Shown one piece after another: positions 3,806 through 62,074 of a stretch of 64,000 nt of DNA. Location: contig JBDRGY010000002.1 in the NCBI GenBank assembly GCA_043817315.1, positions 1,046 to 65,045 on the forward strand, written 5' to 3'. A model generated the notes under the pieces. The model saw nothing but the letters and a program-made list of their open reading frames with translations, made no database searches and had not been told where the DNA came from. The translations under genes were made by a program, and so were the position numbers. Position 1 is the stretch's first letter. Each line of letters opens with the position of its first letter. The DNA is from Patescibacteria group bacterium. GTDB lineage: Bacteria > Patescibacteriota > Patescibacteriia > JBDRGY01.

Positions 3806-3824
3806 TCTTTTTCCCTATACTTAG

Positions 3825-6800
3825 CTAAAACAAATTTCCCATATTACTCATCCAAGAGAAAGTATCAGACAGATTATCTATTACGATTTGTAAAAATGAT
3901 TCTCTCTTTCTGGAGGTTAGGACAGAGTAGCTATCAGATAGGGTTTCATTGTCTGCTTTATCAGTTGCCACAACGCGGAAATGGTAGGTTCTGGCTGGTT
4001 CCAGGTCTTTGATTACCATGATGTGGTCAATCACTAGTTCTGGATTTACATCGGTTGATCCGGTGTAAGTGGAAGAAGAAAGTCCTTCTCCGTATTCCAA
4101 TTGGGAAGAAGTTGGTTCATTGGTCATCCAGGAGACAATAATCTGGACTGAAGCGGTATCACCAGACCCCACAGTATTAGCCTCATATCTAACATCAGAA
4201 ATAATAGGCGGCGTAGTATCTTCTAAAGTGGTAAAGGATTCTTCGGGGGAAACTGCTTCGTAACCGAATTGATCCCTGCCCCTGACTGTAAACTGGTAGG
4301 TGGTGGCATCTTCCAGTCCAAAGACCAGGACACTGTGATCAGTTACCAGGGCGGTATTGCCTTGAGTTTTGGAAGGTGTGTCTTCATTACCGTATTCCAC
4401 CTCTGAAGTAGTGGGTACGTTGGTGGTCCATTTGACTTCGGTCTGGCCTTCAGCCTTGTTTTCTGATGACACACTTAAAACTCTGGGGAAAGTAAGGGTG
4501 GTAAAAGCATAATCCCCTGATTCCGGTGCATTGTCGGTAGCATCTAAACCAGTAGGCCGAAAATGATAAGTGGTTCCGTCACTTAAGCCTGACAATTTCA
4601 AGGTGTGAGATAGGGTTGAAGAACCGGTAGTGTCGTAAACTACGGAGCCATAATCTGTAGTGGTGCCATAATCAATCAGTGAAGTTGTTTCTTTATTGGT
4701 TTTCCAGGAGATAGTGGCTTCATATAGTTTAATATCACTAACCACAACTTCAGAAACCCGGGGCGCTTCCAGGGTGGTTAAGCTACTGATCGAGGACAGG
4801 GCAATGTTTCCGTCAATATCCCGAGAACGAATACGGTAATAATATTTGGTCTCAGCATTTAGACCCTCCAAAACTACAGTGTGGTCGTCACTCTCTTCAA
4901 TGGTTCCCTGCTCTTCGCCCAAATCTTCAGTCAAGCCATATTCAGCGTGAGAATCCGCCTCTCGGTCTGTTTCCCAAGTAATAGTGGCTGTAAAGGAATC
5001 AGGAGTGACTGTGGGGCCAGCTGAAATCGTAGGCGGCGTCCGGTATCTGCCCTCTGGAATCTCGGAAACTACAGTGGAGGCAGCAGATTGAGCTCCGGCA
5101 TTGTCTTTGGCCGTTACTTTATAGTAATAAGTGGTTTCATTAGATAAACTGGTATCGATGTAGGCAATCGATTGAGTTTCGCTGATATCTTCAAAGGTCT
5201 TATTGTCAGTCGAGCGTTTGATTATATAAGCTACCTCTTCACCTTCACCAGAACTTATAGTAGTCGGTGGGTCCCAAGTTAGGGTCAGCATATACTTTTC
5301 AGTGTATCTGTCAGACGAATCAATGATTAACATATTGGTGGGAGCACCCGGCGCCGCCGTATTAGCCTCGAACTCTATGCTGGCATGATTGTCGTAGTTG
5401 ATGTTACCGGCATCATCGATAGCTACTATGTAAAAAGTGTTAGTACCTTGTTGGGTGGCATAAGGTCCCGGGCCTAAAGTGGTCTGGGCAGTGTAGGAAG
5501 AGTTGGTTACACTTGGCTCCTGATTAATTGAATAGTAGTAGCCCTCTATGGTTACCCCTTCATCAACCGGTTCCCCCCAGGTGAATTTGAAAGAGTTGGT
5601 GGTGTTACTGGTAGGGGCAACTGCCAGGCTAGTTGGAGCTGATGGGGCATCCGCTGTTTCAAAGGTGTAATCACCAGAATAGCCGGTATTGTCGTCCTCA
5701 TCAGTAAACTTTACTCTGTAATGATATGTGGTATCCGGTTCCAAACCGATCAGGTTAACACTGTGAGAGGATAGATGATCATCCTGGCCGGCTTCGCTAC
5801 CATAGGCTGTGGTTTCCCCATATTCCACGAATGAAGAACATTCTCTGTCTGTTAACCATTCAATAGTGGCTGATTGGATCCTGGTTTCTGCCCCTGGGTT
5901 ACCGACCAGGCTGGGAGCTTCATAATATCTGCCTCTAGCTTGTTCACAGACTTCGCTGGAAGCTGCTGAGGCTGCCTCGGCGTTGTCGGTGGCTTTAATC
6001 TGGTAGCAATACCAGGCATTCTGGGTTAAACCGGTATCCAGATAACCGGTTCCTGTTACTTGGGATATTTCGGTGTAAGTATCCCCGCCATCATCTGATC
6101 TTTCTACTTTGTAGTGATCAATTCCTCCGCCTACTTGATCCGGTTCTTCCCAGGTAACGGTTAGTCTAAAGGTGCCTTGTTCTCTGTTAGAAGAATCAGT
6201 GACGATAATTCCGGTAGGAATACCGGGGGCTGAGGTTGAGGCTGTAAATTCTATGGAAGAATAGGAACTCCAGTTCTTATTGCCGGCAGTATCTACTGCC
6301 ACCACGTAGAAAACATTAGCCCCTTGCTGGGTGGCAAAAGCATCTGGGCCAATGGTGGTTTGGGTGGTGTAAGTAACATTGTTAGCGTTAGGAATAGCGT
6401 TAATAGCGTAGTAATAACCAGCTATAGTAGTATCATGGCTGGCTGGTTCCAGCCAGGAGAAAGTAAAGGAATTAGTGGTATTAGAGGCTGGATCTACTTG
6501 TAGATTCTGAGGTTCTGATGGAGCGTTGGCTGAATAATAATAGTTTACTGAAGTGTAGTAATCAAGCAGATTTCCAGCCACATCTTTGGACCTGACGTAA
6601 AAAACATTAGTGCCTTCCTGGTAAGAGGTGATTCCAGAGACAGTGGTTTCCGCAATACAGGTATCGGTGGCAGCCGGTGCCCCTGTTTTGTAGCAGTATT
6701 CACCAATGCCGGAATGGGCATCGGAGCCGGCATTCCAAGTAAAAGAATAACTATCTTCACTGGAAAAACCAGCTGGGTTGGGTAGGATCCCAGAGGGGTT

Positions 6801-8891
6801 GCCGGGGTCAGTGGCGTCGTATTTGAAAGTGAAGGCGGTCCAGGTTGCTACGGCTTTATTTCCGGCAACATCCTGAGTTTTAATCCTTAAATAGTAGGTG
6901 CCTGATGACGAAGGAGCAGCAGTATAATTGGCATCAGTAGAATAACTACCAGCAGTGGGATCACAACTAACTGCCCCAAAACACACCCAATAACCGTGGA
7001 CTCCAGATGGATTACCCTCTGGTCCGGCTGCATCAGCTGCTCCTGCCCATGTAAAATACGGTCCGGTGTGGTTGTACCAAGTGGCCGTAGTAATGGCATC
7101 GCCTCCGTTTTCGGAATAACCATTGATGGTGTCTGGATTGGTTGGCGGGGTAACATCAGAAGGGGTAAAAGCAATGGAATTATCTTCAAAGATTGGAGTG
7201 TTTCCTCCAGAGGGCGTTAAGGTCAACTGATACTGGACATACTGCTCTGTGTCAGTCACGCAGCTGTTGGCGCTCATATCTGAACCGCTTCCTATTGCCG
7301 TGCAAGTTGAAAAATCTGGAGCACCGAACATCACCGCGCTGTCAGAAGTGCGCACTTTGACTGCCACGGTACCTGAGCCCGAAGAATTATAAGCAAGATT
7401 GCCCCAGTCAGCTGAGAATTCAGTGTTAAAAATATTAGAGGTGAGTGTCCCTGTTGATTCATAATCTGATAGACTAAAATCATCGACGTAAACTGTTTTA
7501 CTAGCCTTCACCTGCACTCCATAAGTACGACTAGAAGCAGCCCCGGTTACAGTACCGGTTAGTTTGTACCAACCACCAGCATCGGCAGTGAAGGCTGTGG
7601 TCACAGTTGAGCCGTTGGCATAAAGCTCCACGTCAGCATCAGTTACTTCCGAGCCGTCAGTATAGGCGTAGGCTACTAAAGTATAAGAATTTGTATCTCC
7701 TACATTAACATTCTGTAAAAGTTCCACGGTATTTGTTCCAGAAACTACCTTGGCTGATCCTGCTCCATTTCTTTTGGTGTCGGTATCCAAAGTAAGGGTA
7801 CTGCCCAAGTTAAACTTGTTAGCCAAGAAGTTTTCCACCCCGTGGCGGTCTGCGGCTGAGATCACTTCGTCATAAATCATAAATTCAGCTATACGTCCGT
7901 TAAGATTCCAGGTACCATCGGCCCATTTGCCGATGGCTAGCCGCGGACTGGAAAAAGTGGCCTGGGAACCAATGGCGCTGACGGACTGCGATACACCATT
8001 AAACCAAAGAAAATGGCGGTTTCCAGTATTAGAAACTTGCTGGGAAAAAATCTGGAACCCCGAATCTATATTGGGACCATTGGCCACACCACCGTTGTAA
8101 TAGTTATAGTAGTCATCAGCGGTTCCTCCAGGAGCGTAGCGGGAGATAGACGATCCATTACTTGGACTGGCTGGATTGTAAATGAAGTATAGGTAATCGT
8201 AATTACTAGACGGCTGATTGGTGTAGTCAAACGAGGCCACTGAGATAACAGTGATATCAGTGATCGAAGCAATAGAAGTTAAGTCCACATAAAGCACTTC
8301 TCCGTTGCCAGCTGTATCAACGTCTGGCGAAAATTGGAGAACCGCTCGGCTATTCAACTCATCTGTTTCATAAGTCGGTCGGCGGCTGGCTGACGTTTGG
8401 GAAGCGTCGTTATTGCTGCTCGATTGGTCTCCCCAAACCTGGACGGTCTGTCCGTCTGTGGCCAGGGTTGAACCATTGTCATTATAGGCTTCAGCGTCTG
8501 CTCGCCCATAAAACTCTAAACCGCTGATAGTGGTCGGATCTATGCCCAGCCAGCTGTCTAGATCACTAGAATCATCAACGCCTGTATCAGAAAATTCCTC
8601 AGTGGCTGATACTGATACCTGCCCGGCCGTGGTAGTAGCATCAATATTTGATCCTGAAGCGTATTCGTCTACGGTCGAAGAGCCTACGCCACCACTCCAA
8701 TCAGTCTGCGTCCAGGGTGAATCGGCTGCTCGGGTAAACGGCCATTGGGTAACCAGTACAACTATAACCAATACTAAAAATACCGAGATTATCATTTGGA
8801 TTCGGTACTTAACCCGGTAAATTCTAAGCCTAGCTAAAGCCTCTTTTAGCTGCTTCCTTAAATCAGAGGTTTTACTCTGTCTGGATTTCAT
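3825..8891 (-). CDS. Giant surface protein, paralog 2 (1688 aa). It has a basic N-terminal tail, a single TM anchor, a LamG-like lectin domain, many FN3-like / purple-acid-phosphatase-N-like beta-sandwich modules, and a conserved C-terminal motif.
   Basis: Single 5-kb ORF with TM segment RIQMIISVFLVLVIVVLVTQW. LamG-like signature ...LNGRIAEFMIYDEVISAADRHGVENFLANKF. Internally duplicated ~100-aa modules (NTTNSFTFSWLEP...GYYYAINA...TQQGANVFYVVAVDTAGN and NTTNSFKFTWGEP...GYYYSINQ...TQQGTNTFYIVAIDDAGN). Repeated T.EW.T......VEYG.T..YG....H.V.L.GL...T.Y.FR units. Confidence 0.9.
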   Translation of the reverse strand: MKSRQSKTSDLRKQLKEALARLRIYRVKYRIQMIISVFLVLVIVVLVTQWPFTRAADSPWTQTDWSGGVGSSTVDEYASGSNIDATTTAGQVSVSATEEFSDTGVDDSSDLDSWLGIDPTTISGLEFYGRADAEAYNDNGSTLATDGQTVQVWGDQSSSNNDASQTSASRRPTYETDELNSRAVLQFSPDVDTAGNGEVLYVDLTSIASITDITVISVASFDYTNQPSSNYDYLYFIYNPASPSNGSSISRYAPGGTADDYYNYYNGGVANGPNIDSGFQIFSQQVSNTGNRHFLWFNGVSQSVSAIGSQATFSSPRLAIGKWADGTWNLNGRIAEFMIYDEVISAADRHGVENFLANKFNLGSTLTLDTDTKRNGAGSAKVVSGTNTVELLQNVNVGDTNSYTLVAYAYTDGSEVTDADVELYANGSTVTTAFTADAGGWYKLTGTVTGAASSRTYGVQVKASKTVYVDDFSLSDYESTGTLTSNIFNTEFSADWGNLAYNSSGSGTVAVKVRTSDSAVMFGAPDFSTCTAIGSGSDMSANSCVTDTEQYVQYQLTLTPSGGNTPIFEDNSIAFTPSDVTPPTNPDTINGYSENGGDAITTATWYNHTGPYFTWAGAADAAGPEGNPSGVHGYWVCFGAVSCDPTAGSYSTDANYTAAPSSSGTYYLRIKTQDVAGNKAVATWTAFTFKYDATDPGNPSGILPNPAGFSSEDSYSFTWNAGSDAHSGIGEYCYKTGAPAATDTCIAETTVSGITSYQEGTNVFYVRSKDVAGNLLDYYTSVNYYYSANAPSEPQNLQVDPASNTTNSFTFSWLEPASHDTTIAGYYYAINAIPNANNVTYTTQTTIGPDAFATQQGANVFYVVAVDTAGNKNWSSYSSIEFTASTSAPGIPTGIIVTDSSNREQGTFRLTVTWEEPDQVGGGIDHYKVERSDDGGDTYTEISQVTGTGYLDTGLTQNAWYCYQIKATDNAEAASAASSEVCEQARGRYYEAPSLVGNPGAETRIQSATIEWLTDRECSSFVEYGETTAYGSEAGQDDHLSSHSVNLIGLEPDTTYHYRVKFTDEDDNTGYSGDYTFETADAPSAPTSLAVAPTSNTTNSFKFTWGEPVDEGVTIEGYYYSINQEPSVTNSSYTAQTTLGPGPYATQQGTNTFYIVAIDDAGNINYDNHASIEFEANTAAPGAPTNMLIIDSSDRYTEKYMLTLTWDPPTTISSGEGEEVAYIIKRSTDNKTFEDISETQSIAYIDTSLSNETTYYYKVTAKDNAGAQSAASTVVSEIPEGRYRTPPTISAGPTVTPDSFTATITWETDREADSHAEYGLTEDLGEEQGTIEESDDHTVVLEGLNAETKYYYRIRSRDIDGNIALSSISSLTTLEAPRVSEVVVSDIKLYEATISWKTNKETTSLIDYGTTTDYGSVVYDTTGSSTLSHTLKLSGLSDGTTYHFRPTGLDATDNAPESGDYAFTTLTFPRVLSVSSENKAEGQTEVKWTTNVPTTSEVEYGNEDTPSKTQGNTALVTDHSVLVFGLEDATTYQFTVRGRDQFGYEAVSPEESFTTLEDTTPPIISDVRYEANTVGSGDTASVQIIVSWMTNEPTSSQLEYGEGLSSSTYTGSTDVNPELVIDHIMVIKDLEPARTYHFRVVATDKADNETLSDSYSVLTSRKRESFLQIVIDNLSDTFSWMSNMGNLF

Positions 8892-8894
8892 TTA

Positions 8895-11800
8895 TTAAAA
8901 CAAATTGCCGATGTTTCCTAACCAGGAGAAAGTCTGTTCTAGGTTGGAGATAACTATCTGCAAGAAAGATTCTCTGGCCCTGGAAGTTAACACTGAATAA
9001 TCGTCCGATTTAGTTTCGTTTCCAGCTTTATCTACAGCTATTGTTCTAAAATGGTAAGTTCGGGCCGGCTCCAGGTCGGGTATAATCATCAAGTGATCCT
9101 GCACCAGTTCCGGATTAATATCGGTCGAAGCTGAATATGAAGTTGACCCCAGCCCCTCCCCAAAATCAGCCGCGGTAGTGGTTGGCTCATCAGTTCTAAA
9201 GGAGACAATAATCTGAATTCTGGCTGCATCACCCGATCCCACTGTATTGGACTCATACTTGACGTGAGAAATGGTAGGCGGCGTAGTATCCTCTAAGGTT
9301 CTAAAGTTGTTTTCTACTGAAACGGCCTCGTAGCCGAATTGGTCGCGGCCCCGAACCACAAAATTGTAAATAGTTGCATCATTTAAGCCAAAAAGCAAGA
9401 CGGAGTGATCGGTTACCAGGGCAGTATTACCTTGAGTTTTGGACGGTTCATTTTCATTGTAGTATTCCACTTCCGAAGTAGTGGGCACATTGGTGGTCCA
9501 CCTAATCTCTGTTTGACCTTCGGCTTTGTTTTCCGAGGTAACATCAGACACTCGCGGAAAGGTTAGGGTAGTAAAGACATAATTATCCGAATTAAATTTA
9601 TTGCCGGAAGCATCTTCTGCATAAACTCTCAAATTATAGGTGGTTCCGTCTGCTAATCCTGTCAGTTTAATAGTGTGAGTAAAGCTAGTAGAGCCAGAGG
9701 TGTCAGTGTAGGTTAAACCATAATCCGTAGTAGTCCCATATTGAATCTGGGTAGTCGTTTCTTTATTAGTTTTCCAGGAAATTGTCGCTTCATACAACCT
9801 AATATCAGTAATCTCCATTTCCGATACCCGCGGCGCTTCTAGAGTAATAAATGAGGTTACGTCGGAATAGGCTTCATTTTCATCTCGGTCAATGGATTTT
9901 ACCTGGTAGTAATAAGTAGTTTCTGGATCTAAACCGGTAATCGTCACCGAATGATCATCAATTAAGTCAGAAGTTCCCTGTTCTCGATCATAATCTGTAG
10001 CCGAAGTTCCAAACAGGACAAAGGAGGAGGCCGGTCTTTCTGTTTTCCAGGTGACGGTGGCCGCAAAGGAATCAGGTACTATGGCCGGTCCAGCTGTAAT
10101 TTCCGGCGGAGTGGTATAACGACCGTCAGCTATTTCTTCAACTGGATCAGTGGCCGCTGAAGCGGATCCGGCTTTGTCAGCTGCTTTTACCTTGTAAAAA
10201 TATAATGTCTCAAATTCTAAATCAGTATCGATATAGGCAGTAGATTTGGTGGTGGCAATAACCTCATAGTCATTGTCCTCTTCAACCGCTCTATATATTG
10301 TATAGGTAATTTCTTCTTCCAGATCTTCTTCGACTGCATCTTTTACGATTCCAGAGGCACTGGGAGGATCAACCGAATTCCAACTGACCATTATTCGATA
10401 TTCTTTATCGGCCCGGTTGGAGACATCAAAGACTTCAGGATTAAGAGGAGCATCCGGCGGGATGGTATGAGCTTCAAAATCCACTACCGCATAATTGGCA
10501 TAATTTACATTACCGGCATCATCAGTGGCCACTACGTAGAAATTATTTATTCCCTGTTGAGTGGCTGCCGCAATCGGGCCTACTTCCGTATGAGTAGTAT
10601 AATAGACATTATCTTCGTTGGGCGGGGCATTAATACTGTAGTAATAACCTCCGACCGTAATTCCCTCGTCTACCGGCTCGGCCCAAGAGAAAGTGAAGCG
10701 ATTAACCATGTTTGATTCCGGATCAACTGCCAGATTGACCGGAGCGGAAGGGGCACCCAAGGTGGTTACTTCGTATATGGCTGATTCCCCGGTATTTCCA
10801 TCTTGGTCCACCCAGACTAATTTATAGTAATAAAGGGTGTCCGGTGATAGTCCAGTGACTAAAACCTCATGCTCGTCAACCAACTCTGAGGTGCCGGTTT
10901 CTTCTCCCAAACCTTCAGTCGTTCCGTATTGGACAAAAGAGGTAGCCGGATGAGGAATAACATTACCCAAACGATCTTGATCTGGCAAAGTCAGCCACTC
11001 GACCAAAACGGACCTGATGTAAGGAGTTACCGTCGGCTGACCGGACATAGTTGGGGCAAATTTAAATTTACCTTCCGGCTTAATACTTTCTACTGCCGAA
11101 TTACCGGAAGCGGCATTCCCACTGCCAACCGCTCTGATGAAATAACTATAGGTAATGGTGTTGTCCAAACTGGTATCTAAATAACCCAAAGTGGTAGTTG
11201 TAGCAATGTTGGTGTAATTATCTGGGGGATCAGCTACTGTGGATGGATTCTCACAATCTTCCTCACAACGATAAACTTTAAAGTTCTCGGCATTGGCCGT
11301 TTCATCCCAAGTCAGAGTGACTGAATATTTTTGAGTGGAACGATCAGAGGAGTCAGTCGCCTGCAAACTGGCTGGCGGATCTGGAGCAGTAGAAGTGAAG
11401 TCATAAGTTGTAGAGGTATAATTATCGTAATCAATGTTATTAATCACATCAGCTGCCACCAGATATAAAGTATTAGTCCCTTGTTGGGTAGCCGCTGAAA
11501 AACCAGGTAATAATCTGTTGTCAGTCTGATAGGCCGAGGTCCAACCACCGTCCGGACTGGGGGTAGTATTGCCGGCCGTATTGGTACCACAATTTTCGGC
11601 GCTAGGTAATTCATTGATTGTGAAACAATAACGTAAAATTTCATTAACATCACAAGGAGTCTGACCCAAACAGGTAGCCGGTAAGCTCCAGGAAAAGGAA
11701 AAAGTGTTATTGTTTGTGGCTGAAGTAGGCGTCGCCACTAAATTTTGCGGGGCTGTTGGCGGACTACCGGCATAGTAATAAGTAGTAGTGGCATAAGAAG

Positions 11801-14800
11801 AATAGTTGCCCGCCTCATCCAGGGCTCTAACATAGAAAATATTACCTCTGGTTCGATAAGCGGTAATTTCGGTTATGTGATTGTCATCAATGCAGGTATC
11901 AACAGCGCCGGGGGCCCCGGTTTTATAACAATAATACTCAACCCCGGAACCACCGCCATCAGTTGACACGTCCCAAGAAAAATCAAAGTCATTAGTTGAG
12001 GTGTAACCCGAGGGTGTGGCCGATACGTCAGATGGGTTAGAGGGATCAATAATATCTAATTTATAGGTAAAAGTATTAGTCGGATTAGTAGTGATATTAC
12101 CGTTATTATCGACAGTTTTTATTATCAAATAATAAGTATCGGAGGTGAGGGCAGAGGCCGCCTGGGTAGCTGCATTCCAGGAACCGTCATTGCCGGAGGC
12201 TGAATATAAATTAGTGCCGGAAACATAAGCCAGGTTAGTGGGATCGCTGGCATCATCAACCGGATCTTTGCCGCTGTCATTCCCAAAATAGACATAAAAT
12301 CCTGACAATCCAATTCCGCCGGCATTATCTGCGCCGGTCCATTCAAAGTAAGGTGTAGCGTCATTAACCCAAGTATCAGTCGCAATCTCTGTTCCCCCAT
12401 CTTCGGTATAGCCGGTTGCTGAAGTCGGGTTGGTTGGGGCCGTTCCGTCAGTATAATAACTCCAAGTTAGATCATCGACCGTCGGTGAATAAAGTTGGTC
12501 AGTCACAAAATAAATTCTAACTTGTCCATACTGAGCCACGGTAGAATCAATGCTGTAATAATTAGTGCTACTAATTTCCCGATTATTGGAAACCGCTGTC
12601 CAGTCCCCCCAATTGACGTCATCTTCATCATCAGCGCAGCCGGCATTAGAACAAGTTCTAGTTTCTATACTAATAGAAGTATTAGCCGGTTCGGTTACAT
12701 TGACCGTTAGTCCTCCGTAGCCATAAACCCCAGCCTCAAAATCCAGAATTTCTGAAGTCCAATAACCGTTACCCTCAAAACCGGTGCTGGAAGTGGCCAC
12801 CACGTAACGTTCCATTGAAGTGGTATATTCTCCGCGGAAACCCAAGACCACATTATTGCCGGTCATTACCAGGTCACCGTATTCGAAGAAAGAAGTTGTG
12901 TCTCGTGTACTCCAACTATCTTCCGAGATGTCATAAACGTACATTTCATTGCCATTGGGCTCATCACCGCGCGGGATTAAAATATTTCCCTGACCGTCCG
13001 GCACGCAGGCATCGCCGTAGCGCATATTACCCGGAGCCAATGACAGAGTACCGGCCACGTCCCAAGTTTGTGAACCGATATTAAATCGATAGATATCGTC
13101 TTGATTGTTACCACGCACCATATAAATATAACCATCTCCGCCGTTAGCAGCACAACCACCAGTATAAACAGTTCCGGGGATAGCCGAGGCAACTGTCTCC
13201 CAGATATCTGTATCAATTGTGTACTTATAAAATTCTGTGGTGTTGGCGCCTCGGGCCGTATAGATAGTATTGGTTCCATCAAACACCAAATCCGATCCGT
13301 AATTAGTTTCGTTAGCCGCCGTATTGGTGTTATCCAATCTAGTCCACTTATCATCATTTATATCGTAGCGCCAAAAGGTTCCTTCATTTTCCGTTAAGCC
13401 GCTTTCTCCCGGTAATAGATAGACTCCATCATATTGGTCACTGCTATGATTTATATATTGGGCTGACGCTCCCGGTCTAACCCGCATAGGTGCATTGGCT
13501 CTGCGCTTCCAAACATCATTGGCGATATCATAAGACCACCACTCATTGGAATTACCGCCCCTGGCCACATACAGCATATCGTTATCATTATCATAAGCCA
13601 CGGCTCCGTAGTAAAAACCATAGTTGGTATATGTATGAGGCAAGGTCGGAGTTTTCCAGCGATTTTCAGAAACGTCATAGGCCAGCAGGGCATAATCAAC
13701 CTGATAGCCCCGAATGGTGTACATGGTGTCATTAGAAGGAACGTAAACCAGGTTGCCAGCCCCTCCCTGGTATTGAGTAGTCGGCAAATCATCCAACCAT
13801 TCCCAGTTTTCATTGGCAATGTCATAACGCAGAAAACCGTTAGCTGCATAACCCCGCACTAGGTAAAAATAACCATCCAAATAATAGGCGGAGGCACCAT
13901 AATGGGTCCAGATGGGCACGCTTTTTTCATAAGACCAGGTGTTGGCCGAGACCCTATAGGAATAAAAATCGGTATCGCCATAACCTCTGGTGGCATACAG
14001 ACAGCCACCTTCGTCACTGCAATAATCACCATTGGGCACATATACTAAAGTACCGCCATAATAAACCAATTGGTCAAAACCGGTCAGCTGAGTCCAATCA
14101 TCAGCCGTTTCTCCTTCTCCGACATCGGTAATAATGTTGTATTTCCAGAACTCATTGGTGGCATCTCCCCTGGTGGCATAAATAGCATTGGCGCCATCAT
14201 AGGCCAGTTGACTACCATAATAGATTTGGGACCCTTCGAAATCACTCAGGTCTGTCCAGGTGCCGGCATTAACGTTGTAGCGGCGGAAAGTGGCGGTGTT
14301 GTTACCGCCGGTGGCAAAAACACAACCTGCCGAATCGGCACAATAGGTACCGGTTGGCACATAGACCATACTGGCGCCACCGTAAACCCCCGATCCGTAA
14401 TTGGCCAGTTGAGAATAAGTTTTATCGGCTACCGAGTAAGCGTAAAATTCCTGGCGGTTGTAACCGCGGAACATAAAAATGGTGTCATCGCCGTCATAGG
14501 ACAATCCCGATCCGTAGTAACCGCCGACATTATTGGCCACCCAGGGAATGGGTGCTTCGTTGGTCCAGATGCCGTTGCTGACTGAATCCAAAGTCAGGCT
14601 GGTCCCGGATTCAGCCGCCGTATTGATATTGGTCTCCAAAGTTCCGGTCGCTTGGAAATCGGCCTGGACCGTCCAGGTATTGGTACCGGCCGGAGAAATA
14701 CCGTTATAGGTATAAGTAAAGATAGTCTCTACATCATCCGTATTGCCGGCATCATCCTTGGCCGCCACCCGCAAATAATAAGTACTGCTGTTGGTCAGAT

Positions 14801-17800
14801 CGGTATTGACTTCGTAAGTGGTTCCGGTTTGAAAATAATCTTCGGAACTGGTCGGATCGTGAGAGGCGTTGGTAGTCCAGGACAAGTAATACCCGGCCAA
14901 GCCTGATTCGGCGTCCACAGCCCCGGTTAGTTCGAAGTAAGGATTAATATAATAGTAGGAATTGCCGGTGGTTAAAGCAGTTCCCTTGGTTGAATCAGCG
15001 TAACCGACCACAGTCGGGTTAGTCGGATTGACTGAATCCTTTTCGTAGTTAATCGTAAATTCAGAAACAGTTGGAGTATTATCGTCATCCGAATTTAAAA
15101 CCACTTTGACCTGAATATAACGATTAGCCGAAGAACCAATGGTGGTGCCGGAAACTTGAGTCCAGTCCTCCCAGGAAACTTGGTCATCAGAAGTCCTGGT
15201 GTAGTAGTCAATTGTACTACCCCCCGGCTCTAAATCAGTGGCCGTAAAACTGTTAAACGAGGTAGCGTAAGTCAGATCGTAAGTCGGAGAAATCCAACTG
15301 GCTGTGGGAATGTAATCATCAGAATCGGTAGTAAATTTATAAATGGAATTGGTATCAAACCCTCGGCGAATGTACATGGTATCAGTGGCATCATCATGAG
15401 CCATGCCAATGCCACGGACAAAATTATCAGGAGTATCACTGGCCCGGCTCCAACTATCTCCCGAGATGCTGTAGCGCCACATAGAGGTGCCGAAATTGCC
15501 GGTAATGGCGTAGATACTGTCATCTCCGTCATAGGCCAACACTGCGTTGTAATAGGAACCTTCCGGTAAGTCGGCCAATTCGGTGAAGTCATCGCCAACC
15601 GGATCGTATTCGTAAAATTGAGCCCGATAATAACCGGCTAGCATATACACTTTGTTGCCATCGTTGGTTATTCCTGCACCATAATAAGCGGTCACCGGTA
15701 GATCTTCTGTAGTCCAACTGCCATCATAATGATAAATATCGTCAGTATTGTTGCCTGCCTGAATATAGACGTCACCATCACCAAAACAGGTGATTCCCCC
15801 TCCTTCTTCCACCGCTCCCGGCATACTGCCAATACTGGACCAGCCTCCGGCATCATTGCTGATGTCATAACTGTAAAAATTAGTTGTGTTAATACCCCTG
15901 GTCAAATACAGTTCTCCATTGCCGTCATAACACAGCGAGCCGCCCCGGCTGATATTGGCTAAGCCGGTCGAGGTCATGGTGTTCCAGGCTCCATCGGCAA
16001 TATCATAACGATAGAAAATGGTGGTATTTCTACCCTGGGCCATAAACAAACACCCGGTGGCATCAGAACAACCGTCTTCACTGTTGGGCACAAAGGTGAT
16101 CAGATCGCTGTCGTAATCATTGCTGGCAATAGCCGGGGTGGCAATAGAGTCCCAAGCCCCGGCAGTAATGTCATAACGCAAGAATTCCGGCCGGTTGATT
16201 CCGGGCAGAGCATATATATAGCCGTCAAAGTAGAGGAGAGTACCGCCTTCATCAACCGTTAACCCCCCCGGCATATCCGGCGGATTATCAAGATCTTCCT
16301 GCCATTCCTGGTCAGCAATATCGTACATCATAAACTCGTCATTGTTGTAACCGGTCATGGCGTAGATATTTCCGTTGACAGCGTCAACCGCCATGGAACT
16401 GCCGTAGCTAATCCGGCCGCTGTTGCCCAGGGTGGTCGGTACATTGGCAAAATTGTAAGACCATTGAGCCAGGCTGATATCATAACGGAAAAACTCGCGA
16501 TTGTTGCTGCCCCGAAAAGCGTAGATACAACCGGTCTCACAATAAACCGGACTAGTGCCATAAGAAACCGCTGAATAGACCAAGGGGTGGCCGTTGCCGG
16601 TATAAATCTGATAAGGATAGGGAATTGAAGAAATGGTGTCGTTCCAAGTATCAGTGGCAATGTTGTATGACCAAAACCCGTCCCGGCTGTTACCTTGCGT
16701 GGCGTACAGTTTACCGTTATTGCCACTGACCAGATCCGAACCCAAACCCCAGATGTCCGGCGCATCGCTTAATTGGGTCCAAATATTATTGGCAATATCA
16801 TAGCGAAACAGAAAGGGCACGCCGTTGGTGTCGTCCGAACCGTCCTGCCCGTTGATGGCATAAATATAACCGTCATAATAAGCTAGCGAGCCTCCGTAAT
16901 AGAAACCGGTTGGCGCATCAATCAGTAATTTCCAGATATTTAACTCCGGATTATAACGAAAGAAGCCCGGTTGGTTGCCACCCACGATCATGTAGATGTA
17001 AGTACCATCAGTGGTTAAATCTGCTCCATAATTGGCGCCTTCGTAAGTATAGATGCCATAGCCACGCTGATTGGTGGGATAACCCGGAGTATCTGCACTC
17101 CAAGAACCAACTCCGCCACTGGCAATTTGCAGATCACCAGAGGTTGTGGTCATGTCTAGTTGGTTAGGATAATATTGCCCGGCTTGCCACTCGGTTTGGG
17201 AAGAGACTGTGTAGGTAGCTGCCGTAGCGTGTACCAACAGTTGCTGAATTGATCCGGCCACTAGGGTGCCAATAATCAAAATTACAAAAATCGAAATAGG
17301 AGAAAAGTGCCACCACTTCTTTTTTCTAAGAACAATTAAAGGTTTTATTTTACTTTTTTCTTTTTTACGACGTTGCTGGGCCGATTTGCTAATTGCCTTT
17401 TGCCAACTGGCATGTTTTTGGGAAATTCTACCCGGGATAGCTATTATTGTTTTTATAAATCCAGTAGTTAATCCAATAACCCGCCGCCATCTGGCCTGAT
17501 TTACCTTTTTGGTAGTTTGAATGTCTTTTTTAAGATATCTCTTGGCTTTCAACTGACGGGCTCTAACGACACTTTTAACTTGCTCTCGTTTTTTAACCGG
17601 TTTAACAAAAATACTGGCTGTCTTCTCAAAGCCAGAACGCATAAGCTGGGGAATTTCTAATTTATCTTTTAGATTGAAAGAGTATTTAAAACCCTTGGGA
17701 CGACTAAAAACTTTACCGGAGTAACTGTTTCCTCCAGTTTTTTTGGACGTTTTCCCCAGAAATCTACGTGTCCCCATAGATTTCAACTTGTTTTTTTGGT

Positions 17801-17813
17801 TTGTATTTTTCAC
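8895..17813 (-). CDS. Giant surface protein, paralog 1 (2972 aa). It has a ~165-aa Lys/Arg-rich cytoplasmic N-terminus, a single TM, about 24 Kelch-like propeller blades in two blocks, FN3-like modules, and the same C-terminal region as paralog 2.
   Basis: Single 8.9-kb ORF with TM WHFSPISIFVILIIGTLVAGSIQQLL. I counted ~24 recurrences of the blade motif (F/W/M)(F/Y/W)(R/S/K)Y(D/N)I....W (FFRYNPELNIWKLL, LFRYDIANNIWTQL, FWRYDINDDKWTRL and others). The C-terminal ~700 aa align with paralog 2. The stop lies 3 nt before the paralog 2 start, so the two look like an operon. Confidence 0.9.
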   Translation of the reverse strand: MKNTNQKNKLKSMGTRRFLGKTSKKTGGNSYSGKVFSRPKGFKYSFNLKDKLEIPQLMRSGFEKTASIFVKPVKKREQVKSVVRARQLKAKRYLKKDIQTTKKVNQARWRRVIGLTTGFIKTIIAIPGRISQKHASWQKAISKSAQQRRKKEKSKIKPLIVLRKKKWWHFSPISIFVILIIGTLVAGSIQQLLVHATAATYTVSSQTEWQAGQYYPNQLDMTTTSGDLQIASGGVGSWSADTPGYPTNQRGYGIYTYEGANYGADLTTDGTYIYMIVGGNQPGFFRYNPELNIWKLLIDAPTGFYYGGSLAYYDGYIYAINGQDGSDDTNGVPFLFRYDIANNIWTQLSDAPDIWGLGSDLVSGNNGKLYATQGNSRDGFWSYNIATDTWNDTISSIPYPYQIYTGNGHPLVYSAVSYGTSPVYCETGCIYAFRGSNNREFFRYDISLAQWSYNFANVPTTLGNSGRISYGSSMAVDAVNGNIYAMTGYNNDEFMMYDIADQEWQEDLDNPPDMPGGLTVDEGGTLLYFDGYIYALPGINRPEFLRYDITAGAWDSIATPAIASNDYDSDLITFVPNSEDGCSDATGCLFMAQGRNTTIFYRYDIADGAWNTMTSTGLANISRGGSLCYDGNGELYLTRGINTTNFYSYDISNDAGGWSSIGSMPGAVEEGGGITCFGDGDVYIQAGNNTDDIYHYDGSWTTEDLPVTAYYGAGITNDGNKVYMLAGYYRAQFYEYDPVGDDFTELADLPEGSYYNAVLAYDGDDSIYAITGNFGTSMWRYSISGDSWSRASDTPDNFVRGIGMAHDDATDTMYIRRGFDTNSIYKFTTDSDDYIPTASWISPTYDLTYATSFNSFTATDLEPGGSTIDYYTRTSDDQVSWEDWTQVSGTTIGSSANRYIQVKVVLNSDDDNTPTVSEFTINYEKDSVNPTNPTVVGYADSTKGTALTTGNSYYYINPYFELTGAVDAESGLAGYYLSWTTNASHDPTSSEDYFQTGTTYEVNTDLTNSSTYYLRVAAKDDAGNTDDVETIFTYTYNGISPAGTNTWTVQADFQATGTLETNINTAAESGTSLTLDSVSNGIWTNEAPIPWVANNVGGYYGSGLSYDGDDTIFMFRGYNRQEFYAYSVADKTYSQLANYGSGVYGGASMVYVPTGTYCADSAGCVFATGGNNTATFRRYNVNAGTWTDLSDFEGSQIYYGSQLAYDGANAIYATRGDATNEFWKYNIITDVGEGETADDWTQLTGFDQLVYYGGTLVYVPNGDYCSDEGGCLYATRGYGDTDFYSYRVSANTWSYEKSVPIWTHYGASAYYLDGYFYLVRGYAANGFLRYDIANENWEWLDDLPTTQYQGGAGNLVYVPSNDTMYTIRGYQVDYALLAYDVSENRWKTPTLPHTYTNYGFYYGAVAYDNDNDMLYVARGGNSNEWWSYDIANDVWKRRANAPMRVRPGASAQYINHSSDQYDGVYLLPGESGLTENEGTFWRYDINDDKWTRLDNTNTAANETNYGSDLVFDGTNTIYTARGANTTEFYKYTIDTDIWETVASAIPGTVYTGGCAANGGDGYIYMVRGNNQDDIYRFNIGSQTWDVAGTLSLAPGNMRYGDACVPDGQGNILIPRGDEPNGNEMYVYDISEDSWSTRDTTSFFEYGDLVMTGNNVVLGFRGEYTTSMERYVVATSSTGFEGNGYWTSEILDFEAGVYGYGGLTVNVTEPANTSISIETRTCSNAGCADDEDDVNWGDWTAVSNNREISSTNYYSIDSTVAQYGQVRIYFVTDQLYSPTVDDLTWSYYTDGTAPTNPTSATGYTEDGGTEIATDTWVNDATPYFEWTGADNAGGIGLSGFYVYFGNDSGKDPVDDASDPTNLAYVSGTNLYSASGNDGSWNAATQAASALTSDTYYLIIKTVDNNGNITTNPTNTFTYKLDIIDPSNPSDVSATPSGYTSTNDFDFSWDVSTDGGGSGVEYYCYKTGAPGAVDTCIDDNHITEITAYRTRGNIFYVRALDEAGNYSSYATTTYYYAGSPPTAPQNLVATPTSATNNNTFSFSWSLPATCLGQTPCDVNEILRYCFTINELPSAENCGTNTAGNTTPSPDGGWTSAYQTDNRLLPGFSAATQQGTNTLYLVAADVINNIDYDNYTSTTYDFTSTAPDPPASLQATDSSDRSTQKYSVTLTWDETANAENFKVYRCEEDCENPSTVADPPDNYTNIATTTTLGYLDTSLDNTITYSYFIRAVGSGNAASGNSAVESIKPEGKFKFAPTMSGQPTVTPYIRSVLVEWLTLPDQDRLGNVIPHPATSFVQYGTTEGLGEETGTSELVDEHEVLVTGLSPDTLYYYKLVWVDQDGNTGESAIYEVTTLGAPSAPVNLAVDPESNMVNRFTFSWAEPVDEGITVGGYYYSINAPPNEDNVYYTTHTEVGPIAAATQQGINNFYVVATDDAGNVNYANYAVVDFEAHTIPPDAPLNPEVFDVSNRADKEYRIMVSWNSVDPPSASGIVKDAVEEDLEEEITYTIYRAVEEDNDYEVIATTKSTAYIDTDLEFETLYFYKVKAADKAGSASAATDPVEEIADGRYTTPPEITAGPAIVPDSFAATVTWKTERPASSFVLFGTSATDYDREQGTSDLIDDHSVTITGLDPETTYYYQVKSIDRDENEAYSDVTSFITLEAPRVSEMEITDIRLYEATISWKTNKETTTQIQYGTTTDYGLTYTDTSGSTSFTHTIKLTGLADGTTYNLRVYAEDASGNKFNSDNYVFTTLTFPRVSDVTSENKAEGQTEIRWTTNVPTTSEVEYYNENEPSKTQGNTALVTDHSVLLFGLNDATIYNFVVRGRDQFGYEAVSVENNFRTLEDTTPPTISHVKYESNTVGSGDAARIQIIVSFRTDEPTTTAADFGEGLGSTSYSASTDINPELVQDHLMIIPDLEPARTYHFRTIAVDKAGNETKSDDYSVLTSRARESFLQIVISNLEQTFSWLGNIGNLF

Positions 17814-30317: not shown

Positions 30318-30349
30318 ATCTGTATTTTTAGCTAAGGTTAGGCAAATTT

Positions 30350-30421
30350 GCCCTTGTAGCTCAATGGATAGAGCAGATCCGTCCTAAGGATAAGATGGGG
30401 GTTCGATTCCCTCCAAGGGCA
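30350..30421 (+). tRNA. tRNA-Arg(CCT), no encoded CCA
   Basis: Acceptor GCCCTTG/CAAGGGC, D arm GCTC AATGGATA GAGC, anticodon loop GTCCTAA, T arm GGGGG TTCGATT CCCTC. Confidence 0.8.
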
Positions 30422-30501
30422 TATTACAGCGAATTCTTAAGGTCTTGAGCCGTATGAAAGGCCGAAATCCCGCCGATTGGCGGGGCCTCTCGGGAGACCA
30501 T

Positions 30502-30539
30502 GGGCCGTTAGCTCAGTTGGCTAGAGCGTCACTTTCGCA
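30502..30539 (+). other. 5' fragment of a tRNA-Ala(CGC)-like gene (positions 1-37: acceptor 5' strand, D arm, anticodon stem 5' strand and CGC loop) with no matching T arm downstream
   Basis: GGGCCGT TA GCTC AGTTGGCTA GAGC G TCACT TTCGCA. It is followed at once by the GC-rich bracket motif CCCGCCTATCGGAGTGCGG. Confidence 0.6.
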
Positions 30540-30556
30540 CCCGCCTATCGGAGTGC

Positions 30557-30628
30557 GGGCCAGTAGCTCAGTGGTAGAGCACTGCATTCGCATTGCAGGG
30601 GTCAGGGGTTCGACTCCCCTCTGGTCCA
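30557..30628 (+). tRNA. tRNA-Ala(CGC), no encoded CCA
   Basis: GGGCCAG/CTGGTCC acceptor with G3-U70, anticodon stem CTGCA/TGCAG with loop TTCGCAT, T arm AGGGG TTCGACT CCCCT. Confidence 0.9.
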
Positions 30629-30802
30629 TTTCCGCACGGCGGGCAGGTGGCGAAAGTCGCCCCGCTTTTTGGCGGAGCACGGCACCAAATCAAAAAAATG
30701 CCTAAAATCAGCCAAATTTTGGCTTGATTGTTTTTACAAAATGTGTTAGAATTAAGTTGTCCTTAATTTAGAAAAAATCCAAATTGAAAGGGGGTGAACT
30801 AA

Positions 30803-31560: not shown

Positions 31561-31690
31561 GGGCCGGTCCCTAGGTCCCGCACTGCGGGACCGGGATCCC
31601 GATCACCAAAAGTGACTTAGGGATAGTTCAGTTTCCGCCAAAGGCGGACCAGCCTCTGGCTGGGGCTATCATCTCTTTGCGATAAAAAGT
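31561..31690 (+). other. Structured GC-rich segment that contains a split copy of the first 17 nt of the downstream tRNA-Ala(GGC)
   Basis: GGGCCGG plus a 56-nt stem-closed insert (TCCCTA...TAGGGA, with inner hairpins GGTCCCGC ACT GCGGGACC and TCAC CAAAA GTGA) plus TAGTTCAGTT. Further hairpins follow: CCGCC AAA GGCGG and CCAGCC TCT GGCTGG. Confidence 0.4.
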
Positions 31691-31707: not shown

Positions 31708-31891
31708 GGGCCGGTAGTTCAGTTAGCTAGAATGCCTCCATGGCATGCCTGCCCGCCAGGACCCATGGGCCGTTGGCTCAGTTGGTAGAGCGTCTCCATG
31801 GCATGGAGAAGGTCACCGGTTCGAATCCGGTCCGGTCCATAGGCTCTGGCAGGCGGGGAGGAGGTCAGGGGTTCGAGTCCCCTCCGGTCTA
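31708..31891 (+). tRNA. Interrupted outer tRNA-Ala(GGC). 5' part 31708-31746, 3' part about 31857-31891, with a ~110-nt intervening sequence at the 3' side of the anticodon loop.
   Basis: The two parts have complementary acceptor strands (GGGCCGG/CCGGTCT, with G1-U72 and G3-U70) and anticodon-stem strands (CCTCC/GGAGG), plus a canonical T arm AGGGG TTCGAGT CCCCT. Joined in silico they give a 74-nt cloverleaf. The D loop AGTTAGCTA lacks the usual GG. Confidence 0.5.
31767..31839 (+). tRNA. tRNA-Ala(GGC), complete, located inside the interruption of the outer tRNA-Ala(GGC)
   Basis: GGGCCGT TG GCTC AGTTGGTA GAGC G TCTCC ATGGCAT GGAGA AGGTC ACCGG TTCGAAT CCGGT CCGGTCC A. G3-U70 is present. There is one 7-66 mismatch. 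Confidence 0.85.
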
Positions 31892-38087: not shown

Positions 38088-38101
38088 ACTGTTCCTTTAG
38101 C

Positions 38102-38152
38102 TCCATCGAGCCTGCCTATCGGCAGACAGGCTGGTCTCGATGGAGTTTTTTA
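38102..38152 (+). terminator. Long hairpin terminator (CTCCATCGAG...CTCGATGGAG plus T6) whose loop carries a CCTGCCTATCGGCAG motif
   Basis: Read directly. The inner motif resembles the tRNA bracket motif CCCGCCTATCGG at 30540. Confidence 0.7.
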
Positions 38153-45998: not shown

Positions 45999-46538
45999 AT
46001 GACATTCATTTTCCAATGTATTTGGTATATGCTGCCGGCTGGTTTTGCCAACATGTCACCGGTACTGATGAAATTCGGGTTTAAGAAAATCGCCAAGCCA
46101 GTCGATGGCGGCCACACTTGGCACGGCAAGCCCATTTTGGGTAAAAGCAAAACTTGGCGCGGTTATCTTTTTGCTCCTATTTTCGGCCTGATCATGTTTG
46201 GTTTCCAGCAGTATCTGTATCAATTTGAAGCTATTCAAAGGCTTAGTTTTTTCAACTACCATGAGCAAACCATCTGGTTGGGTGCTTTGCTGGGCGCCGG
46301 AGCTATTTTGGGTGATTCTCTAAAAAGCTTCTTTAAAAGACGGGTCAATCTGCGCCCCGGGCAGAGCTGGATCCCCTTTGATCAGATAGATTACACCCTT
46401 GGGGGCCTGACTCTCGGAGCTATACTTTTCTGGCCTGGCTGGAATGTCTTTGGTACCGTTATCGGGGTTGGACTTTTTCTCCATATGATAGTAAATTTAA
46501 TTGGATATTCTATTAAACTACAAAAAACTAAACTATGA
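45999..46538 (+). CDS. CDP-archaeol synthase-like (DUF46/CarS family) integral membrane protein
   Basis: 179 aa. MLPAGFANMSPVL, GKSKTWRG, and GDSLKSFFKRR (a CDP-alcohol/cytidylyltransferase-type signature). The size fits CarS. Confidence 0.55.
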   Translation: MTFIFQCIWYMLPAGFANMSPVLMKFGFKKIAKPVDGGHTWHGKPILGKSKTWRGYLFAPIFGLIMFGFQQYLYQFEAIQRLSFFNYHEQTIWLGALLGAGAILGDSLKSFFKRRVNLRPGQSWIPFDQIDYTLGGLTLGAILFWPGWNVFGTVIGVGLFLHMIVNLIGYSIKLQKTKL

Positions 46539-55829: not shown

Positions 55830-55901
55830 AGCGGGTGAGCGGAATCGAACCGCCGTCTTCAGGTTGGAAACCTGACATAATAGCCACTATACTACACCCG
55901 C
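55830..55901 (-). tRNA. tRNA-Gly(TCC), no encoded CCA
   Basis: Minus strand: GCGGGTG TA GTAT AGTGGCT ATTAT G TCAGG TTTCCAA CCTGA AGAC GGCGG TTCGATT CCGCT CACCCGC T. Confidence 0.9.
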
Positions 55902-55955
55902 CCGCCCAATTCCTGGAACCTACATCTTTCTAGATAAGTTACAAGAATTGGGCGG
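55902..55955 (-). repeat. Perfect 12-bp inverted repeat (CCCGCCCAATTC / GAATTGGGCGGG, 30-nt loop) between the GIY-YIG stop and tRNA-Gly(TCC); its last base is tRNA position +1
   Basis: Read directly on the minus strand: CGCGCCCGCCCAATTC ttgtaacttatctagaaagatgtaggttccag GAATTGGGCGGG CGGGTGTAG. Confidence 0.7.
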
Positions 55956-55962
55956 GCGCGCC

Positions 55963-56220
55963 TTAACGAGACGCTAGATAATTTTTTAAGTTTTTCTTAA
56001 TAAATCTTCTCCCCCAGCCACTTTTATAGTATCTTTCTCTCTGGAGGGCATCTTGCTTGCTCAGGAAAGCTTCGCAATAAATTAACTTCAGTGGTAAGTG
56101 GGGCTGGGTTGAATAAGTTGACCCTTTATTGTGTTCTTTGACTCTCTTCTTTAGATTCTTGGTGAATCCTATATATAACCTGCCATTTTTCTCACTTTGT
56201 AGAATGTACACGTAATACAT
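55963..56220 (-). CDS. Small GIY-YIG nuclease-family protein (85 aa)
   Basis: MYYVYILQSEKNGRLYIGFTKNLKKRVKEHNKG...E. Confidence 0.85.
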   Translation of the reverse strand: MYYVYILQSEKNGRLYIGFTKNLKKRVKEHNKGSTYSTQPHLPLKLIYCEAFLSKQDALQRERYYKSGWGRRFIKKNLKNYLASR

Positions 56221-62034: not shown

Positions 62035-62074
62035 CCTGCCCGCCGTACGGATACACGTATTAATCATCTACTGC

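Follow-up and report, generated by a model that had tools for sequence, protein, structure and literature searches.

Background

Insertions of several kinds are found in tRNA genes. Tyrosine-integrase islands and prophages, integrative elements with tRNA genes as their targets, insert within the gene, often in the anticodon loop or the T-loop, keep the cell viable through a copy of the displaced tRNA sequence that they bring, and leave a tRNA fragment behind. Group I introns occupy the anticodon loops of bacterial tRNA genes, and the 35/36 site is enriched in Patescibacteria (PMC13011429). Archaeal tRNA genes contain bulge-helix-bulge (BHB) introns, at many positions and with several per gene in the Thermoproteales, or are split, as in Nanoarchaeum, where GC-rich leaders form a helix that joins the tRNA halves. 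Here we analyze a 64-kb stretch of the genome of a Patescibacteria group bacterium (assembly GCA_043817315.1, contig JBDRGY010000002.1, positions 1,046 to 65,045; hereafter the window, to the whole of which all window coordinates refer), in which GC-rich inverted repeats, the arms, bracket several tRNA genes. The arms appear to be the two ends of small palindromic DNA cassettes inserted in tRNA genes, each cassette bringing its own working replacement of the interrupted tRNA, so that the outer halves are relics; we assign this reading a probability of about 0.7.

The cassettes share with the tyrosine-integrase elements the choice of target, the copy of the displaced sequence and the fragment left behind. 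Unlike these elements, the cassettes, at 108-198 nt, carry a whole tRNA gene without an integrase gene or an att-type repeat, and the outcome is not a rebuilt gene plus one fragment but a nest, with the 5' half of the interrupted gene on one side and the 3' half on the other. Repetitive extragenic palindromic (REP) sequences and REPINs, which are associated with RAYT transposases, and the palindromic elements derived from IS200/IS605 resemble the cassettes in being short, imperfect palindromes rich in GC, with end motifs that are conserved and stems that covary, in being non-autonomous, in making no target-site duplication and in occurring in both orientations. In contrast to all of these, the cassette ends pair with each other instead of forming separate hairpins, and no target tetranucleotide is conserved; the cassettes lack the GTAG foot of REPs, in place of which many have a CAGG (or CCTG) tail, and, unlike REP/REPIN, the cassettes are restricted to tRNA loci, have a tRNA as cargo and were not found linked to a RayT gene.

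The archaeal BHB introns and split tRNAs are similar to the inserts in the multiplicity of positions, in the GC-rich helix between the tRNA halves and in that removal is exact on paper, but the cassettes reside in a bacterial host, lack a BHB, contain a full tRNA and are surrounded by outer genes that decay, and no splicing endonuclease is seen in the window. Group I introns, like the cassettes, are found in the anticodon loop, including the 35|36 position, without a target-site duplication and with a patchy distribution in Patescibacteria; the cassettes differ in having no ribozyme core (no Rfam match) and in that function is provided by a replacement gene, not by splicing. Finally, Rickettsia palindromic elements and bacterial miniature inverted-repeat transposable elements are small palindromic repeats that can also sit in genes, but the latter make target-site duplications and the former stay in the gene product, whereas the cassettes do neither: the interrupted gene is abandoned and a substitute is supplied. 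In behavior, the cassettes are thus close to the tRNA-targeting integrative elements, in form to REP/REPIN and the IS200/IS605 derivatives, and on paper to the archaeal multi-intron or split tRNAs, but they lack defining features of each of these families. We regard them as insertion elements that are palindromic and non-autonomous and in which both cargo and target are unusual.

A full-text literature search, with incomplete coverage such that an earlier description is possible, retrieved no account of one tRNA gene lying within another. Carrying a working tRNA copy seems to be a strategy, not described before, that lets an insertion persist in an essential gene: by bringing a full substitute, an insertion can occupy an essential and probably single-copy gene of a very small genome.

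Results and Discussion

Palindromic arms at tRNA loci

A sequence-only reading of the window had placed a 5' arm, CCCGCCTNNCGGAGTRCGG, and a 3' arm, CCGYACGGCGGGCAGGT, around two tRNA genes. Each of these motifs indeed occurs exactly twice, the 5' arm at 30540-58 (plus strand) and 62232-14 (minus strand) and the 3' arm at 30632-48 (plus) and 62050-34 (minus), compared with about 0.1 copies expected from shuffled sequences (for the 3' arm, the shuffle mean is 0.09, and none of 100 shuffles gives two copies). The compensated difference between the inner helices, GTGCGG/CCGCAC at the Ala locus versus GTACGG/CCGTAC at the Ile locus, is also seen, and so are the variant arms of the Ala(GGC) locus (31748-57 / 31848-57) and the end of the Phe insert. 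The claim that the arm family brackets tRNAs holds: all five CCCGCC...GGCGGG pairs with no more than 260 nt between the partners are located at tRNA loci in the window.

It could be argued that the motif is a generic GC-rich terminator or REP-type hairpin that is found next to tRNA genes by chance. One listed member of the family does have this nature: the supposed terminator loop at 38112-26 belongs, as its tip, to an ordinary terminator made up of a hairpin and a T-run, has no link to a tRNA and has to be removed from the family; a terminator-like hairpin follows the Ala(CGC) cassette as well. The arms, however, enclose 70-165 nt and are not followed by a T-run, the combination of hairpin and T-run being confined to two separate elements (38101-38150 and 30646-30671). 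Furthermore, the hairpins are not evenly spread: in 157 kb of related sequence, they are about 9 times denser within 300 nt of a tRNA (31 hairpins in 12.5% of the sequence against 23 in the other 87.5%). The excess of the exact arm motifs over the shuffle expectation and the recurrence of the same architecture in many genomes are equally at odds with chance proximity, so this explanation is already contradicted and its probability is negligible.

tRNA genes nested within tRNA genes

Matching each predicted tRNA against the window yields partial copies on both sides of the arm-flanked tRNAs and reveals what the sequence-only reading had missed, namely that each arm-closed insert interrupts an outer tRNA gene whose identity is that of the tRNA carried inside. 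In the window, the inserts hold a complete inner tRNA of the isoacceptor of the outer gene in the cases of Ile, Phe and Ala(GGC), and of Ala(CGC), where the outer gene is truncated. When the inserts are deleted in silico, outer tRNAs with the right anticodon that are valid for ARAGORN are obtained in 12 of 12 cases, those of the window being tRNA-Ala(ggc), tRNA-Phe(gaa) and tRNA-Ile(gat). The inserts end in (T)CCCGCC...GGCGGG(A), often with a CAGG, CAAG or CAAA tail. Small hairpin inserts of 15-56 nt, of the type (T)CCCGNC...GNCGGG(A), recur in the outer pieces at the D-loop position 21|22 and the T-loop position 55|56. The outer halves, arms and hairpin inserts are unannotated because tRNA finders report only the inner gene or make false partial calls; these pieces could therefore pass for introns or assembly errors.

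The most elaborate nest is that of tRNA-Ile on the minus strand, where the outer gene consists of four exons separated by a 36-nt hairpin, a 75-nt insert and a 198-nt cassette bounded by the arms. Exon 1 (62358-62379), which is preceded by a promoter-like site (62444-62416) and carries a G18 to A change, is followed by the small hairpin insert A, CCCGTC...GACGGG, at 21|22 in the D-loop (62322-62357; other lineages have different hairpins at the same site). Insert B, at 26|27 (62241-62315), contains the hairpin GCCTGCCCCGCA...TGCGGGG, has a homolog at the same site in the related locus L136 and lies between exon 2 (62321-16) and exon 3 (62240-33). Cassette C interrupts the anticodon at 35|36 (62035-62232): the 5' arm (62232-14) and the 3' arm (62050-35) enclose the inner tRNA-Ile (62151-62075), which is flanked by a leader/trailer helix, CTACTGCTGG/CCAGCAGTAG. 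Exon 4 extends from position 36 to the CCA end (61994-62034). When joined, the outer exons read ...AGTTAGCTA|GAGCGC|GTCACTGA|TAATGACG...TTCGAAT, where AGTTAGCTA is the D-loop and TTCGAAT the T-loop. The Ile nest is identical base for base in an independent ENA assembly and is, therefore, not an assembly artefact. In the region of insert B (62286-62320, minus strand), a 29-nt stretch, ACCAACTTACTGTAAGCACCAAATAGGAA, is located between 5-nt direct repeats AGCGC and is absent from the homologous insert of L136; it may be a secondary insertion or a slippage duplication.

The tRNA-Phe nest, also on the minus strand, is simpler. A 179-nt cassette with the ends CCTGTCCGC...GCGGGCGGG (60084-60262; inner tRNA-Phe at 60200-60126) interrupts the D-stem at 23|24, between exon 1 (positions 1-23, 60263-60284, with a promoter-like site at 60344-60316) and exon 2, which continues through the CCA end (60031-60083). 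The acceptor stem of the outer gene, GCCGAGG, is the same as in the un-nested tRNA-Phe of the relative L103. A second tRNA-Phe called by ARAGORN at 60031-60103 (29 bits, Rfam) combines exon 2 with the cassette tail and is a false partial call. The T-loop of the inner tRNA-Phe is TCCGATT, with C in place of the near-universal U55, in the window (60126-60200, minus strand) and in the relatives L121 (5830-5902), L136 (3290-3361) and L129 (5740-5811); the inner tRNA-Cys of L129 has TGCAATT, and the outer resident copies keep the canonical TTCGATT.

On the plus strand, the outer tRNA-Ala(GGC) gene (5' exon, positions 1-38, 31708-31746; 3' exon, 31857-31891; called as tRNA-Ala(ggc) by ARAGORN when the two are joined) is split by a 110-nt cassette (31747-31856) with the arms (G)CCTGCCCGCC (31748-57) and GGCAGGCGGG (31848-57), which are the Ile arms in the reverse-complement orientation. 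The 5' exon is orthologous to the un-nested genes of L156 and L158 but has a G18 to A change, and the 3' exon has a C72 to T change and a T-run in place of the CCA end. The intact inner tRNA-Ala(GGC) (31766-31840) is identical to the inner copy of L157 at 75 of 76 positions and to the resident allele at 62 of 75. Upstream of the nest lies a further, promoter-proximal tRNA-Ala(GGC) fragment (positions 1-21, 31561-31668), the pieces of which (31561-67, 31624-33 and 31664-68) are separated by hairpin inserts at 31568-31623, 31634-48 and 31649-63. Joined, the three pieces give GGGCCGGTAGTTCAGTTGGCTA, identical to the start of the un-nested Ala(GGC) gene in L156 and L158; a promoter-like site (31506-35) precedes the fragment, and the homologous fragment of L157 has hairpins of its own.

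At the tRNA-Ala(CGC) locus, likewise on the plus strand, the cassette consists of the 5' arm CCCGCCTATCGGAGTGCGG (30540-30558), the intact inner tRNA-Ala(CGC) (30557-30628; found by ARAGORN, Rfam tRNA score of 70.1 bits, identical to the L156 gene at 72 of 72 positions) and the 3' arm CCGCACGGCGGGCAGG (30632-30647). It is preceded by the relic 5' half of the outer gene (positions 1-37, 30503-30539), which matches the un-nested gene of L157 at 35 of 38 positions, two of the differences being in the anticodon stem. The outer gene is truncated: a terminator-like hairpin with a T-run (30646-30671) and the sequence ACGGCACCA (30679-87), together spanning 30646-30687, stand in place of the 3' half, of which ACGGCACCA is the last remnant (compare ACGGTCCACCA in L157). 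Upstream of the cassette, and downstream of an intact tRNA-Arg (30349-30422), is the decayed 3' part of an outer tRNA-Arg(CCT), from the anticodon loop to CCA (30435-30500), which ends CCTCTCGGGAG-ACCA. The CCCGCC-GATT-GGCGGG hairpin at 30469-30484, described by the sequence-only reading as cargo-free, is present but is a small insert in the T-loop of this Arg relic; similar hairpins are found at the same T-loop position in relatives, and with the hairpin removed the remnant aligns with the 3' part of the tRNA-Arg gene of L158. In L157, the tRNA-Arg(CCT) gene (5606-5679) has an acceptor stem with two G-U pairs (GCCCTTG / CGGGGGC) and looks like a chimera produced by recombination between the inner and outer copies.

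Spread among Patescibacteria and empty sites

A scan of 596 Gb of genome contigs with the 16-mer CCGYACGGCGGGCAGG gives almost exclusively chance matches in high-GC genomes; L103 (Parcubacteria bacterium Gr01-1014_31) is the one true relative. A further 9 independent lineages with an Ile nest come from metagenomes scanned with a 19-mer across the arm-exon junction, and a scan of viral contigs with the 19-mer gives no matches. The Ile cassette at 35|36 is thus present in at least 10 Patescibacteria lineages, among which the 16S rRNA identity is only 64-84%. The common layout consists, on the 5' side, of an outer Ile part ending in ...CACTGA, CCCGCCTGCC, a 3-nt purine bulge, the helix, an AT-rich spacer, the leader helix and the inner tRNA-Ile, and, on the 3' side, of the trailer helix, the second helix strand, GGCGGGCAGG and the outer 3' part that starts with TAATGACG. 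At the same loci, Phe, Cys, Gly, Val, Pro and Arg genes are likewise nested or have remnants at their flanks; nests are found for Phe, Cys, Gly, Arg and Val.

Empty sites are seen in close relatives in which the flanking gene order is conserved (the neighboring MscS-like protein is 77-80% identical). The Ala(GGC) gene is un-nested in L156 and L158, where it matches the outer allele of the window, and the Ala(CGC) gene is un-nested in L157; Ile, Val, Phe and Pro genes are un-nested in L150 and L151, and Phe also in L103. Over four close genomes, the nested and un-nested states form a patchwork. Allele comparison shows a cargo that is foreign to the resident allele and common to several lineages. 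The nests imply horizontal replacement of tRNA genes in Patescibacteria, with remnants layering up.

In L150 (13137-13400) and L151 (5677-5940), a displaced copy of the final ~16 nt of the tRNA-Gly(TCC) gene (ATTCCCGTTACCCGC) lies about 165 nt beyond the end of that gene. The lack of GC-rich arms at this remnant suggests an older or a different kind of replacement. Lineage-specific inserts are also found in the 16S rRNA genes of relatives, a ~179-nt AT-rich one in L121 (16S at 3335-4956) and a ~110-nt GC-rich palindromic one in L132 (16S at 4368-5984); neither belongs to the hairpin family of the tRNA loci.

Junctions, orientation and decay of the outer copies

No target-site duplication is detected at 13 junctions, where the ends share 0-1 nt (the sole 3-nt match involves an adjoining insert rather than an exon), there is no att-type core direct repeat at the junctions, and the 108-198-nt cassettes contain no open reading frame (ORF). 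The same 10-mers are found in both orientations relative to the tRNA sense, as in Ile versus Phe of L141 and in Ile and Ala(CGC) versus Ala(GGC) of the window, and the small hairpins with a bulged base occur in both orientations too. This is natural for a DNA element and awkward for an RNA motif recognized by a protein. The proposal that the arms are the ends of a mobile element, resembling terminal inverted repeats or att sites and associated with tRNA genes, is essentially right: the arms are the termini of inserts, which are present or absent among close relatives and occur in both orientations. An att-type repeat is not found, and no recombinase is encoded nearby.

The inner and outer copies have contrasting fates. 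In the 11 inner Ile genes, 231 of 231 stem pairs are Watson-Crick; the 7 outer Ile genes that can be rebuilt contain 3 G-U pairs and 2 mismatches, and the other 4 of the 11 have lost or scrambled large parts. In the window, the invariant G18 of the D-loop is changed to A in both the outer Ile and the outer Ala(GGC) genes; the outer Ala(GGC) is far more degraded in L157 than in the window. At loci with a single arm (L156 and L158), the leftover arm is degenerating; the leftover 3' arm of L125 is uninformative because it was seen only within the search pattern. The layered remnants, such as the Ala(GGC) fragment with three hairpins and the 3' part of tRNA-Arg with a T-loop hairpin, fit repeated invasion followed by decay.

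These observations bear on the alternative that the inserts represent genuine introns, of a kind new to bacteria, in which the arm helix aligns the exons for a protein endonuclease and a ligase and both the outer and the inner tRNA are functional. Such introns would be the first in bacterial tRNAs that are neither group I nor group II, and several features are in their favor: excision restores complete cloverleafs throughout the 12 cases, a single gene can be interrupted more than once, mostly within loops, which recalls the multi-intron tRNAs of Thermoproteales, the outer genes retain promoters and CCA ends, and some of them (e.g., in L123 and L139) have flawless stems that differ from the inner ones by compensated pairs. 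However, the 4-bp central helix of a BHB is found at none of the 13 junctions (0-3 pairs, never 4, at the 12 that can be scored). Group I and group II intron signals are missing as well: a scan of the window with Rfam at the gathering threshold finds only tRNA and small-subunit rRNA, each insert has only 36-120 nt apart from its tRNA, and A rather than U precedes the 5' junction (in Ile cassette C, Ala(CGC) and Phe), with G as the last base of the insert. Moreover, the lesions are confined to the outer copies (G18 to A in two genes, loss of CCA, mismatches and whole halves gone at many loci), the inner copy never decays, the arms at the Ala(CGC) locus are intact although no outer 3' half is left to be spliced, both arm orientations occur, and EndA-like and RtcB-like families have no match among the ~50 ORFs of the window, which represents 64 kb of the genome. 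Judging from these sequence features, RNA splicing of the outer gene appears unlikely, and we consider a new class of introns with two functional tRNA products very improbable.

Covariation and folding of the nests

Covariation in the arms extends beyond the single compensated pair reported by the sequence-only reading: in 12 copies, 6 of the 8 inner-helix pairs change on both sides, none of 500 shuffles reaches the covariation score, and the single pair accordingly belongs to a real pattern. Predicted RNA folds of the whole loci show a cloverleaf inside a cloverleaf, with a connecting stem composed of the arms and the leader/trailer helix (z-scores from -2.8 to -4.6). The only promoter-like sites precede the outer 5' ends, by about 30 nt, and a consensus scan detects no internal promoters before the inner tRNAs. 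Fold energy and the strand asymmetry of G-U pairs were used to separate RNA-level from DNA-level structure; the arm elements contain 44 G-U pairs on the sense strand versus 27 on the other strand, and 10 of the 17 elements favor the sense strand, a bias too weak to tell the two levels apart.

The sequence-only reading had offered, as its second possibility, a conserved RNA helix for precursor processing. The covarying helix and the apparently single transcript agree with this proposal, which may describe a second role of the arms, but the pattern of gain and loss and the two orientations are left unexplained. In an extended form, the arms would be processing or insulating stems selected by the host, similar to the stems that flank rRNAs, and the nests would result from local duplication and recombination of tRNA genes. 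This would accommodate the leader/trailer helices that abut every inner tRNA, the D-loop and T-arm variants common to the inner and outer copies of a genome and the decay of an arm after the loss of its partner. Duplication and deletion, however, would not yield outer halves that join with single-nucleotide exactness, nor would they explain cargo alleles that differ from the resident ones and recur across lineages; 10-mers in the two orientations amount to two different RNAs, and the un-nested tRNAs of close relatives work without arms. An origin of the nests by local duplication around host-selected stems is thus rather unlikely. The conservation of the arms at the Ala(CGC) locus and the helix covariation fit a role of the stem in the transcript and equally fit recognition of folded DNA ends.

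A model of the cassettes

Returning to the replacement-carrying DNA cassettes, we propose that these belong to a family of palindromic DNA inserts, small and non-autonomous, for which tRNA genes of a Patescibacteria (Parcubacteria-type) lineage are the landing sites. The larger members would consist of an arm, a spacer, a complete tRNA gene, another spacer and an arm, whereas the smaller hairpins would pile up in the outer halves once these are redundant. Because the cargo has the identity of the interrupted gene, the insertion would be harmless even though that gene is essential and probably single-copy. The nest is predicted to be transcribed as one RNA from the promoter of the outer gene, with the arms and the leader/trailer helix forming a long stem that would hold the outer halves together and apart from the inner tRNA; the latter would then be freed by the ordinary enzymes of 5' and 3' tRNA processing and do the work. 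The pair of arms may be kept by the need for this stem, by recognition of the ends by a trans-acting enzyme, or by both. The invariant asymmetric 10-mers, as far as the sequences can tell, point to a specific enzyme that recognizes nucleic acids. Movement between genomes would most likely occur either via the conserved tRNA halves as regions of homology or through a hairpin-specific enzyme, and serial invasions would leave the remnants stacked like Russian dolls.

In a more specific version, the cassettes would be self-targeting, that is, the carried tRNA or the tRNA halves would direct insertion into the cognate gene, by homology or as an RNA or single-stranded DNA guide combined with a hairpin-specific enzyme. 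We offer this only tentatively, with more doubt than confidence; if it holds, essential single-copy tRNA genes would be serially replaced by horizontal transfer across Patescibacteria.

Evidence against the cassettes and the search for a mobilizing enzyme

Several results weigh against replacement-carrying cassettes. Cargo and target agree perfectly across at least 8 tRNA identities, and no shared target motif is found (the 5' flanks are CTGA, CGCA, TAGA, GCTA and GCAT), so that a lethality filter, i.e., selection, or homology-guided insertion has to be postulated. The inner and outer copies are more alike within a genome (mean of 92%) than between genomes (87%), and in L103 each of four outer exons, 14-22 nt long, has 100% identity to the inner gene; this likeness calls for recent insertion, for gene conversion or for selection that acts on the outer gene. 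Arm-helix covariation and the weak sense-strand excess of G-U pairs are expected of RNA-level selection, too. The 3' 10-mer was part of the search pattern, so that its constancy in the Ile set is in part a product of the search; this does not apply to the 5' 10-mer. Among the ~50 ORFs of the window, which encode ordinary housekeeping functions, no transposase, recombinase or homing nuclease is detected, and no such enzyme elsewhere is tied to the motif. Finally, the RayT-like Y1 family, which is widespread in Patescibacteria but has no copy in the window, provides a weak lead: one gene (in L149) lies 75 nt from a family-type hairpin, TCCCGCCtctgGGCGGGA, but four other RayT genes, at the three loci L153-L155, have different flanks and no such hairpin.

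The RayT-like (Y1_Tnp) genes are located at 307-858 (minus strand) in L149, 10001-10555 in L153, 10001-10552 in L154, and 6064-6594 and 10001-10564 in L155. All of these genes contain GC-rich hairpin-forming stretches within the ORF, after the HUH motif, and in each the start codon is immediately preceded by a TTCCC...GGGAA hairpin with trailing T's.

Other features of the window

The inverted repeat next to tRNA-Gly that the sequence-only reading related to the arms is present at 55956-45 / 55912-01, as a 12-bp repeat CCCGCCCAATTC...GAATTGGGCGGG (55901-55956, minus strand) between a GIY-YIG ORF and the 5' end of tRNA-Gly(TCC). Its membership in the arm family is not established, and is uncertain because no outer tRNA pieces are found at this locus. 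The ORF (55963-56220, minus strand) encodes an 85-aa protein that consists of the GIY-YIG domain only, is located directly upstream of tRNA-Gly(TCC) and is flanked by GC-rich hairpins; an ORF in the same position in L129 lies between tRNA-Pro and tRNA-Gly(TCC). In phage T4, the GIY-YIG homing nuclease SegB is active in a cluster of tRNA genes. In the window and in L129, no link of the GIY-YIG gene beside tRNA-Gly to the arms or cassettes is found.

Two adjacent giant ORFs on the minus strand encode proteins of 1688 aa (3825-8891) and 2972 aa (8895-17813). The ORF at 45999-46538 (plus strand) of this bacterial genome matches the CDP-archaeol synthase-like family (CarS-like, PF01864).

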